A stretch of 9,031 nucleotides of DNA, from positions 1-9,031 of the forward strand of contig DAOVER010000082.1 in NCBI GenBank assembly GCA_030668875.1, in the 5' to 3' direction. Source of the stretch: Candidatus Heimdallarchaeota archaeon (GTDB lineage Archaea > Asgardarchaeota > Heimdallarchaeia > Heimdallarchaeales > Heimdallarchaeaceae). Below the pieces are notes generated by a model. That model did not search any database and was not told where the DNA came from. It saw nothing but the letters and a program-made list of their open reading frames with translations. Both the position numbers and the translations under genes were made by a program. Shown here in pieces: positions 3,818 to 6,386 of the stretch. Every line of letters starts with the position of its first letter. Positions within the stretch are counted from its first letter, which is position 1.

Positions 3818-5725
3818 TTAATCTAAATACTTCTCCTTAAATTCCACCCAGGGAATCATTTTGACACCAAGAGCCTTGGCCTGTTCTTGTCTTTTTTCTC
3901 CAGCATTCTCTGCAAGTACTAAATAATCCATGCTTTTGGAAACGCCAGAGCCCCAGGTTATACCTTTTTCCTCCATCATATCTCTTAGTTCTTGTTTAGT
4001 TATTCCTTCAACTTTGCCTGTTATGTATATTTTCATAGATTTCACCATTTTTGTTTGTTTTCGATCAGCGATTATTTTTTTCTTTTCTGGATAGATTATT
4101 ATCAAACCATTTTTGAATAGTTTTTCATATCGTTTAGTCTGTCTAATGCCTTCAAAAATAAATCTGGCAGTAATATCAGATATCCCTTCCAATTTCATTA
4201 GATCATCCATAGAAGCTTCTTTAAGTTCATCAAAACTGCAAAAAGAATTAGCTAATTTCTTACCCATAGTTCTACCCAGTTTTTCTATTCCCAATCCTGC
4301 TAGAAATAATCTAAAAGGCAGATCTCTTGTCCCATTTATTGAAGTTAAGATTTTTGCACCATTCTTACCTAACAACTTGATTAGTTGGTCCTCTGTAAGA
4401 GCATAAAGGTCAGAATAATGTTTAACTAAACCTGAGTCATAAAGTTTCTCCAAACTTTTACCACCTATTCCATCAATAGCAGTTTTTCGAATCCACGAAT
4501 TAATCTCTTGTATATCTCTTCCCCTACATGAATCACCTGTACAGAGGATATGCACCCCTGATTTCATTGTTTTAGCACCACAAGATGGACACTTGTCTGG
4601 TAGCTTTACTTTTCCTGTAGAATTTTTCGTAGTAACACGAATAATTTTTGGAATTACCTCTCCAGATCTTTCAACATAAACAAGATCACCAGGTTTAGCA
4701 CCCAAGTTAATTAGGAAATCAGCATTGTGCATTGTAGCTCTGCTTATTAACGCTCCAGAAATTTCAACAGGTTCTAATTCAGCAACAGGAATTAAGACAG
4801 ACGTTCTTCCAACTTGCCAAGTTATAGCATTCAATTTTGTGGATTTTCCTTTGCTCTCAAATTTCAAAGCTATTTGCCAACGAGGATGATGATCAGTAGC
4901 CCCAACTGTTTCTCTATCAGAAGCTAAATTGTACTTGAAAACAAGACCATCGATCTCAAAGTCTAGATTGTCTCTTTCAGTTTCGATCCTGTTGAAATGA
5001 GTAGAAATTTCCTCAAAATTAGGCGTGTCAAGTTTAAGGAAATCTGAAGTTTCAAATTGCCAGGATTTCAAAATAGAAGATTTTTCTTCAATAGTTGCAT
5101 CGTCGTTCCAACCTAGTAGCTCAAATGCCATGAAATTAAGCATTCTTCCTTCCATCTTTCGTGCGTCCTTTTGTTTCGCTGTTCCAGCTGCAAGGTTCCT
5201 AGGGTTACTGTATTTTTCATCATCTGATAAAGAAACATTTATCTTGTTAAATTCAGAGATTTTCATATAGAGTTCACCTCGAATTTCAACTCGATTCTTA
5301 AAGGAAACTGTTTTAGGAATAGCTTGTATTTTCAATATATTTAGAGTAACATCATCTCCTTTAATTCCAGAACCTCTAGTAGCTGCTTGGGTAAGCTTGG
5401 TGTCTTGATAGACTATTTTAAGTGATAAACCATCTATTTTGTATCCAATCATAAGAGGACGATTTTCTGCCCAAGAAATGATTTTCTCTACAGTTTTAGC
5501 TTTTTGACATGAAAGCATAGGAGGATCATGAGAGACACTCCCATCTGAAGTGGTTCCAACGACGAATAAAACAGGATTATCGGGATCATTTTTCCTTAGT
5601 TTGTCTTCTATACTATCATATTCAGCATCAGAAATTTCAGGCTCACCGTCGTAATATTTTCGTTTATGGTAAAGAATCAAGTTTTCAAGTTGTTTAATTT
5701 CCTCTTTAGATATTTGAATCACCAA
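3818..5725 (-). CDS. ligA: NAD+-dependent DNA ligase
   Basis: Domain Ia [18 protein letters not shown]; motif I K96-IDG; [25 protein letters not shown] and [11 protein letters not shown]; OB-fold WQVGRT...ELEPVEISG...RATMHN; C4 zinc finger CPSC-x12-C-x4-C; HhH repeats; C-terminal BRCT (IYITGK...[10 protein letters not shown]). Start is TTG at 5725 or GTG at 5722. Confidence 0.97.
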   Translation of the reverse strand: [635 protein letters not shown]

Positions 5726-5746
5726 TCTTCAAGAATTAGAATTAAC

Positions 5747-5756
5747 AATTTAAATA
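5747..5756 (-). promoter_or_regulatory. Candidate TATA box for ligA (leaderless spacing)
   Basis: Minus-strand TATTTAAATT lies 22-31 nt upstream of the TTG start. Confidence 0.4.
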
Positions 5757-5866
5757 GTTATAGGGGAGGTATTTGAAACTGAAAACTAACTCGAATCTAT
5801 TTCAAATCATTTTTGATATTACGATAGTTTTTTCACTCACAAAGAAGCATGTTATTACTGAAGCTA

Positions 5867-5874
5867 TTTTATTA
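5867..5874 (+). promoter_or_regulatory. Candidate TATA box for pncC (leaderless spacing)
   Basis: TTTTATTA at -31 to -24 relative to the ATG at 5898, with no Shine-Dalgarno motif. Confidence 0.4.
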
Positions 5875-5897
5875 ATCATTAATACTATATTCATTTA

Positions 5898-6386
5898 ATG
5901 AGAGTCGAGAAAAGGATAGGAAGAATTCTAACTAAACATAACTGGACTTTATCTACTGCAGAATCTTGCTCTGGTGGGTATTTGGCTAATAAAATCACTG
6001 ATGTTGCAGGAAGTTCAAATTATTTCTCAAATGGTTACATAACTTATTCAAACGAATCTAAGTTTCAAAATTTAGATGTTCCAATAATTTCCTTAGAAGA
6101 ATTTGGTGTCTATTCTAGTAAAACTGCTGAACTTATGGCAGAAGGAGTACGAAAAAAAACAAATACGACTTTTGGCATTGCAACAACTGGTATTGCTCCT
6201 CCTGGTGATCCATCATCCGCTCTTCCAACAGGTACCACTTTTATTGGTTTAGCAACAGCAAAAAGTATTAAGCATTATAAGTTTATAATTCGAAATAATT
6301 CTAGACGAAGATTCAAGAAAAAGGTTGTCAACAATTCTCTCAGAATGCTTCTTGCACTAATACAAGAGTATGAAAATGATAGTTGA
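5898..6386 (+). CDS. pncC: CinA C-terminal domain protein / NMN deamidase (PncC family)
   Basis: 162 aa with TAESCSGG, DVAGSSNYF, ITYSNESK, MAEGVR and ATTGIAPPG. Ser23 and Lys55 have the same 32-residue spacing as the catalytic Ser29/Lys61 of E. coli PncC. There is no MoCF/ADPR-pyrophosphatase domain. Confidence 0.9.
   Translation: MRVEKRIGRILTKHNWTLSTAESCSGGYLANKITDVAGSSNYFSNGYITYSNESKFQNLDVPIISLEEFGVYSSKTAELMAEGVRKKTNTTFGIATTGIAPPGDPSSALPTGTTFIGLATAKSIKHYKFIIRNNSRRRFKKKVVNNSLRMLLALIQEYENDS

Follow-up and report, generated by a model that had tools for sequence, protein, structure and literature searches.

The head-to-head arrangement of a gene for a bacterial-type NAD+-dependent DNA ligase (ligA) and a gene for a stand-alone, predicted nicotinamide mononucleotide (NMN) deamidase (pncC) in an archaeon raises the question whether the two genes were brought together by function, and whether they were acquired together. 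The arrangement is found in a Candidatus Heimdallarchaeota archaeon from marine sediment, on contig DAOVER010000082.1 (C43), which was analysed over its entire length of 9,031 bp (hereafter the window) and belongs to a 3.23-Mb metagenome-assembled genome (MAG) of the Heimdallarchaeaceae, 92% complete. According to a published proposal, LigA releases NMN, NMN inhibits LigA, and PncC scavenges NMN (PMC3855486, PMC3680494, PMC4246079); the idea that PncC exists in part to clear the NMN of the ligase has so far been based on biochemistry and on cinA-recA gene contexts. A preliminary description of the window, made from the sequence alone, had proposed a co-acquired, possibly co-regulated two-gene module which makes an NAD-dependent ligase usable in a host normally relying on an ATP-dependent one. 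With modest confidence, we lean towards a secondary clustering, at the level of the genus, of a ligase with an NMN-recycling enzyme, the coupling being advantageous and not obligatory. A functional link between LigA and PncC is plausible; co-acquisition and necessity were not supported.

The arrangement itself was confirmed using further assemblies and relatives. The ligA-spacer-pncC junction was bridged by Logan contigs of two runs that belong to a study of marine sediment; one of these runs was not flagged as a possible source sample. Protein matches at 69–76% identity carry the Heimdallarchaeaceae label, and pncC and its neighbours were matched in loci of Candidatus Heimdallarchaeota archaeon AB_125 and of 7H_bin4. 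The ligA open reading frame (ORF) was called at 3818–5725 on the minus strand; since the codon preceding a conserved GTG is TTA, which is no start codon, in four relatives, the start was set to the GTG at 5722, giving a protein of 634 residues and a spacer of 175 bp. The divergent layout given in the preliminary description was hence retained, and its spacer length of 172 bp was corrected.

The LigA assignment was obtained with 515.6 bits against TIGR00575 (cut-off 444.45), by which the equivalog threshold was passed, and with 470.6 bits against NF005932 (cut-off 369). Adenylation, OB (PF03120), HhH (PF12826/PF14520) and BRCT (PF00533) domains were recognised by Pfam, and the protein was collinear end to end with the LigA structures of Thermus filiformis (1DGS) and Escherichia coli (2OWO) at E about 1e-80. 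Upon alignment to solved LigA, the domain Ia motif was located at Y18-H19...D32-Y35-D36 (YH...SDAEYD); the YH...D-x-x-YD motif of domain Ia is what we take to bind NMN and to set the specificity for NAD+. Motif I reads KIDG, with K95 as the adenylated lysine, its aligned counterpart in the T. filiformis enzyme being KVDG, and a Cys4 zinc finger is formed by C378, C381, C394 and C399. A deviating copy was observed in AB_125 (L017:1942-3861, MEHH01000215.1 = G008:C215), where an in-frame TAA stands at codon 441, which encodes Tyr in the window, and the HhH-BRCT part is split off; we read this ligA as a pseudogene, as the gene of a truncated ligase or as a product of faulty assembly.

The product of pncC consists of one CinA/PncC domain (PF02464, 144.5 bits, cut-off 23.5; TIGR00199, 122.6 bits, cut-off 68.9). 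Its best solved relative in a residue-by-residue alignment was CinA of Agrobacterium tumefaciens (AtCinA, 2A9S), an active NMN deamidase, in which mutants at S31, K63, Y58, R145, T105 and S48 had activity abolished or reduced (PMC5384747). The catalytic dyad S31/K63 of AtCinA corresponds to S23/K55, and this Ser/Lys dyad is invariant in 18/18 PncC sequences of the host's family (f1). S48, Y58, T105, G106 and R145 correspond to S40, Y50, T97, G98 and R136, all conserved, and the backbone contact A108 is kept as A100; the residues affecting activity in AtCinA were invariant in a 21-sequence alignment. The preliminary identification of both genes was correct, as was its placing of the catalytic serine at S23 (2A9S alignment, PMC5384747), and both gene products look catalytically intact as far as their residues indicate. 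In another Asgard family (f5), CinA-domain proteins of about 200 residues (L037–L040, from G073, G069, G070 and G060) have the catalytic Ser replaced by Leu and the Cys after it by Thr, and these are probably not NMN deamidases.

Conservation of the pair was followed through the genus by synteny. The genes for the acyltransferase, the FTR-B-like protein and the glutaredoxin-fold protein (Grx), a variable slot, the 205-residue protein and the methyltransferase are syntenic across the genus, and ligA and pncC lie in the slot. The divergent pair also occupies the slot in G008, G015, G019 and G022; in G004 it is accompanied by an O-methyltransferase and a radical-SAM gene, the latter lying between ligA and pncC. 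ligA alone is present in the slot of G007, G009, G011, G012 and G023, other cargo in that of G001, and almost nothing in that of G006. No ligA remnant was found in the corresponding gap of G016, which encodes an O-methyltransferase-like ORF. As a species proxy for the genus the tree of the ATP-dependent ligase was used, which comprises four clades; an adjacent ligA-pncC pair occurs at least once in every one of them. The LigA tree reproduces these four clades, and the clade of adjacent-type PncC (97/85 support) is compatible with the ATP-ligase topology, unrooted. The presence of the pair in all four clades, together with the congruent trees, indicates that the arrangement is ancestral to the genus and was inherited vertically with several losses. 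The two surveys suggested in the preliminary description, of adjacency and of tree congruence, came out in its favour within the genus, the pair being present in further genomes as well. Within family f1, with G000 counted, both genes were detected in 16 genomes, LigA only in 1 (at a contig edge), PncC only in 3, and neither in 10; the association in the family is thereby strong, but related genomes do not count as independent cases. The host was rightly described as one with an ATP-dependent ligase, since a canonical three-domain enzyme is also encoded in its genome; the same holds for 22/23 congeners.

Viewed across species, the slot (loci L016, L032, L079, L080 and L082 besides the window) is a cargo hotspot, with ligA, pncC, O-methyltransferase, radical-SAM, 559-residue protein and BRCT-repeat genes.

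The spacer was examined for promoters by a five-species alignment and by genome-wide motif counts. On the ligA side, a TATA-like box, TATTTAAAT (5756 to 5748, minus strand), begins 29–34 nucleotides (nt) before the start; the midpoint of the TATA box (5749–5756) lies about 30 nt ahead of the GTG. The box forms part of a block, CCCC-N-ATAA-N-TATTTAAA followed by TTG, which is almost invariant in five species, while the remaining spacer diverges. The pncC box, TTTTATTA, begins at −31 and is weaker than the ligA box; in relatives, TTTTAAG/TTTTAAA lies about 36 nt upstream of pncC. Over the whole genome, TATA-like 8-mers are most frequent between −36 and −27 relative to start codons (about 124, where background would give about 50), and Shine-Dalgarno-like motifs between −15 and −9, from which it follows that leaderless and leadered genes coexist. 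The ligA box falls inside the leaderless TATA peak, and the ligA mRNA would, judging by this position, be leaderless or nearly so. TATA-like boxes at leaderless distance, as reported in the preliminary description, were found again for both genes.

As to co-regulation, about 110 bp separate the two predicted core promoters, and no shared operator between ligA and pncC was found in the spacer in the five-species alignment. Both conserved spacer blocks lie on the ligA side and were lost along with ligA in G016, where DNA homology to the window breaks off 64 bp past the start of Grx and is picked up again 58 bp ahead of the pncC ATG, so that pncC and its core promoter persist without ligA. The two predicted promoters are separate. 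When the genome was searched elsewhere for a regulon, the ligA promoter block proved unique. A tandem GAAACT-like motif in the second block had 24 genome matches vs about 5 expected; this is a low-complexity pattern and uninformative. No Rfam family was matched in the window, spacer included. An ORF of 41 residues at 5773–5898, whose stop overlaps the pncC ATG, was treated as spurious, as it is not conserved in relatives.

The origins of the two genes were compared using database matches and trees. Among the best ~110 LigA matches, down to about 44% identity, the source was an Asgard archaeon wherever it was named (Hodarchaeales, Kariarchaeaceae, Odin, Thor, Hermod, Promethearchaeota), and the LigA of the family nests among those Asgard sequences in the LigA tree. 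By this placement, LigA belongs to a large, old, vertically inherited Asgard clade. PncC of the family is monophyletic (18/18 sequences, 100/99 support), with Pro101 in common; species without a copy in the slot have a branch of their own inside this clade (100/99 support). This non-slot copy adjoins a superfamily 2 (SF2) helicase gene wherever neighbours were annotated; the SF2-helicase context recurs in another genus of the family, whose PncC sequences form a separate branch. PncC of the sister families falls elsewhere in the tree, among bacterial sequences, and the nearest bacterial pncC loci have pgpA-cinA-ligT-recA or recD2-cinA contexts without ligA. Neither adjacent outside relatives nor a common donor of the two genes is apparent from these sequences, and the proposed co-acquisition had to be given up: LigA belongs with an Asgard-wide clade, PncC with a separate lineage of the family that has a Gly-to-Pro signature.

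The helicase-linked pncC loci (L018, L020, L030 and L031, from G011, G007, G049 and G050) encode ResIII, DEAD and Helicase_C domains. One pncC of Acetothermia follows a gene for RecD2 helicase, a recurrence of the pncC-helicase context.

Beyond the genus, 399 Asgard genomes were screened, of which 132 contain LigA and 218 contain CinA; for f20, the counts were 40/135 and 127/135, respectively. Within families f1–f4, CinA was detected only in families and genera with LigA-bearing genomes, and three f1 genomes (G013, G016, G051) contain CinA without detected LigA. For about 35 further Asgard genomes the listed positions include both genes, and in none of these are ligA and pncC adjacent. In a sample of 80 metagenomic pncC loci, mostly bacterial and 46 of them with at least 4 kb fetched, ligA was near pncC in 0/80 of the fetched flanks vs recA in 17, pgpA in 25 and ligT in 24, which agrees with the initial remark that the context is unusual. 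In the literature searched, no paper on a ligA-pncC cluster or on LigA in Asgard archaea was found. The Haloferax control genome matched both PF01653 and PF02464.

A separate pattern was noted in the sister family f3. In its LigA-bearing genera (g5, g6, g7, g9) the canonical three-domain ATP-dependent ligase was not detected: in three genomes the sole ATP ligase is a divergent one (27–28% identity, Pfam recognising no more than the central domain), and in four none was detected (examples are G033:C149, G031:C314 with L168:1333-3111, and G037:C601). The canonical enzyme is present in all genomes of the LigA-less genera (g3, g8). This may reflect a displacement of the replicative ligase, but the MAGs are only 63–94% complete.

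The favoured reading can be set out as a cycle. LigA would seal nicks with NAD+, releasing one NMN per ligation; the adjoining PncC, a predicted Ser23/Lys55 amidohydrolase, would deamidate NMN, giving nicotinic acid mononucleotide (NaMN), and a NadM-like adenylyltransferase together with NadE would return NaMN to NAD+. Such a cycle would keep NMN, a reported inhibitor of LigA, low and conserve the pyridine ring. Genes for NadE (255 bits) and for a NadM-like adenylyltransferase (170.5 bits; C74:12612-13115) are present in the genome, so that the loop through NMN, NaMN, nicotinic acid adenine dinucleotide (NaAD) and NAD can close; no NAPRTase was found in the genome. As for its history, the pair would have a single origin, at the base of the genus or earlier, when a copy from the pncC lineage specific to the family was placed head-to-head with the older, vertically inherited Asgard ligA; it would since have been passed on vertically with several losses, each gene having a separate promoter of TATA type at leaderless distance. 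The enzyme activities, the inhibition of this particular ligase by NMN, any co-regulation and the selective reason for the adjacency are what we infer from these comparisons.

A number of results weigh against such a coupling. In f31 and two further families taken together, LigA was found in 41/89 genomes and CinA in 0/89; f12 has LigA in 0/19 and CinA in 17/19, and f7 has LigA in 1/12 and CinA in 12/12. LigA is present in 19/22 genomes of f5, yet in 4/4 sampled genomes Leu replaces the catalytic Ser of the CinA homologue. Within the genus, the slot of G016 holds an O-methyltransferase gene where ligA would be, next to an intact pncC, and six clade-D species keep the slot ligA without pncC, a pncC of different type lying elsewhere in the genome. 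A paired-contrast test of co-occurrence in the genus was underpowered (5 contrasts, p 0.25–0.5), and joint loss of ligA and pncC could simply reflect physical linkage. On the side of the enzyme, PncC reached 111.7 bits, below the cut-off of 212, with the strict nicotinamide-nucleotide amidase equivalog NF002975; as this model was built on enterobacterial-type sequences, the score weakens the equivalog call and not the family call. In addition, Gly109 of AtCinA, a ribose-contacting backbone position, is replaced by Pro101 in the whole of family f1. Finally, archaeal NMN adenylyltransferases may take NMN directly, in which case PncC would be dispensable; direct use of NMN would make PncC helpful, not essential, which fits the loose phyletic link. 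That PncC is what makes LigA usable, as initially suggested, does not agree with the occurrence of LigA without CinA or with Ser-to-Leu CinA, nor with the loss of either gene alone.

Much of this could also be accommodated if ligA and pncC were neutral neighbours, their adjacency being an accident in a variable slot and PncC serving general NAD salvage or NMN clearance, which we regard as somewhat unlikely. The cargo of the slot varies by species (O-methyltransferase, radical-SAM, 559-residue protein and BRCT-repeat genes, or nothing), the promoters are separate, pncC persists in G016 where ligA is missing, as does ligA in clade-D species that lack an adjacent pncC, and CinA is widespread in Asgard families without LigA. 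However, a chance adjacency is unlikely for one biochemically linked pair among roughly 3000 genes, the pair was kept in all four clades of the genus, and in f1–f4 CinA is found only where families or genera have LigA-bearing genomes, the three LigA-less f1 genomes mentioned above notwithstanding. It is very improbable that the CinA-domain protein performs chemistry other than NMN deamidation, by which the NAD account would become irrelevant. Inactive E. coli paralogues and a 2-oxo-tetronate isomerase are precedents in the CinA family, and the sub-cut-off NF002975 score, a weak match to the isomerase model NF002972 and the Gly-to-Pro exchange at the ribose-contacting position point the same way, but the best solved relative is an active NMN deamidase, and the equivalents of S31, K63, Y58, R145, T105 and S48 are all conserved and invariant in the 21-sequence alignment. 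Least probable of all, and largely refuted, is a two-gene cassette co-acquired from bacteria and needed for an NAD ligase in an ATP-ligase host. That both families are typically bacterial, that the host has an ATP-dependent ligase and that the LigA and PncC trees are congruent within the genus would suit it; the nearest relatives of LigA are Asgard sequences, however, and LigA follows the species proxy, while PncC of the family is a separate monophyletic lineage with Pro101 and non-adjacent helicase-linked copies, the nearest bacterial pncC genes lie beside pgpA, ligT, recA or recD2 and not ligA, and elsewhere in Asgard archaea LigA is found with no competent PncC. Genus-level clustering with an advantageous coupling remains the reading we lean towards.

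Table 1 Positions of the features in the 9,031-bp window
Feature	Position	Strand	Basis or remark
TnpB fragment	1–570	minus	contig edge
MFS transporter	717–1997	plus	
Stand-alone E2-like acyltransferase, lipoyl-less	2038–2835	minus	
FTR-B-like protein	2929–3276	minus	
Glutaredoxin-fold protein (Grx)	3277–3606	minus	conserved gene
Variable slot between Grx gene and 205-aa gene	3607–6402		holds ligA and pncC here; synteny maps across genus
ligA, bacterial-type NAD+-dependent DNA ligase, full-length, 634 aa	3818–5722	minus	TIGR00575, Pfam, structure alignment, GTG from relatives
Divergent intergenic spacer, 175 bp, 24% GC	5723–5897		
ligA core-promoter block	5746–5766	minus	five-species spacer alignment and genome-wide TATA peak
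Second conserved spacer block, tandem GAAACT-like repeat	5773–5793		ligA side; alignment columns about 90–112
Putative pncC TATA-like box CTATTTTATTAA	5864–5875	plus	starts about −31 to −34 from ATG
pncC, stand-alone CinA-C/PncC-type predicted NMN deamidase, 162 aa	5898–6386	plus	PF02464, TIGR00199, 2A9S alignment
205-aa gene	6403–7020	minus	conserved
Eco57I/TaqI-type N6 methyltransferase	7082–8635	minus	

Among the neighbouring genes (Table 1), the acyltransferase, FTR-B-like and Grx genes form a trio downstream of ligA (2038–3606, minus strand) with genus-wide synteny regardless of the presence of ligA. The gene of the 205-residue protein lies directly downstream of the N6-adenine methyltransferase gene on the same strand (6403–8635), and both are conserved together across the genus; the 205-residue protein had no match in Pfam, NCBIfam or the ESM Atlas, and the two genes may be a restriction-modification-like pair. 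A TnpB 56% identical to the fragment in the window is encoded ~1.8 kb from ligA in G052, another genus of the family (L035:6911-7462); this is probably a coincidence of insertion sequence abundance.

What is new about the locus is the genomic context of two known enzymes; the kind of system is not new. A conserved head-to-head ligA-pncC pair provides genomic-context support for the link between PncC and LigA and a simple two-protein test system. LigA is common and vertically inherited across the sampled Asgard genomes (132/399), which bears on describing the repair and replication toolkit of eukaryote-related archaea. A wider interpretation, which we consider doubtful, is that the NAD+ ligase of the Heimdallarchaeia, among archaea closest to eukaryotes, is an old, vertically inherited component of replication and repair, as opposed to a sporadic import, which may have supplanted the canonical ATP-dependent Lig1 in some sister genera, where Lig1 was not found, and that the pairing marks lineages with a LigA load sufficient to select for NMN handling.

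Compared with known systems, the window LigA resembles bacterial LigA (E. coli 2OWO, T. filiformis 1DGS) in that all six modules and the catalytic motifs are common to both. It differs in length (about 635 residues for Heimdall LigA vs 667–671 for the bacterial enzymes), in its archaeal promoter context, and in a Pfam adenylation-domain score of about 1e-55, weaker than the about 1e-90 obtained for the bacterial-like LigA of other Asgard families. Haloferax volcanii is likewise an archaeon with an NAD+ ligase (LigN; Ia-NTase-OB-Zn-HhH-BRCT) besides a canonical ATP ligase, and its LigN and ATP-dependent ligase hold an essential function in common (PMC1684257); its LigN, however, is described as the product of recent lateral transfer with a halophilic bacterium as the source, whereas Heimdall LigA belongs to a deep, vertically inherited Asgard clade. 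With bacterial PncC/CinA (Shewanella oneidensis, E. coli YgaD, A. tumefaciens 2A9S), the window PncC shares the domain, the Ser/Lys dyad and the substrate-binding residues S40, Y50, T97, G98 and R136, and also the proposed role of scavenging the NMN released by LigA (PMC3855486, PMC3680494). Heimdall PncC has Pro where the bacterial proteins keep Gly109, and whereas bacterial cinA is usually found in the pgpA-cinA-ligT-recA context or fused to a COG1058 domain, the Heimdall pncC is stand-alone, archaeal and head-to-head with ligA.

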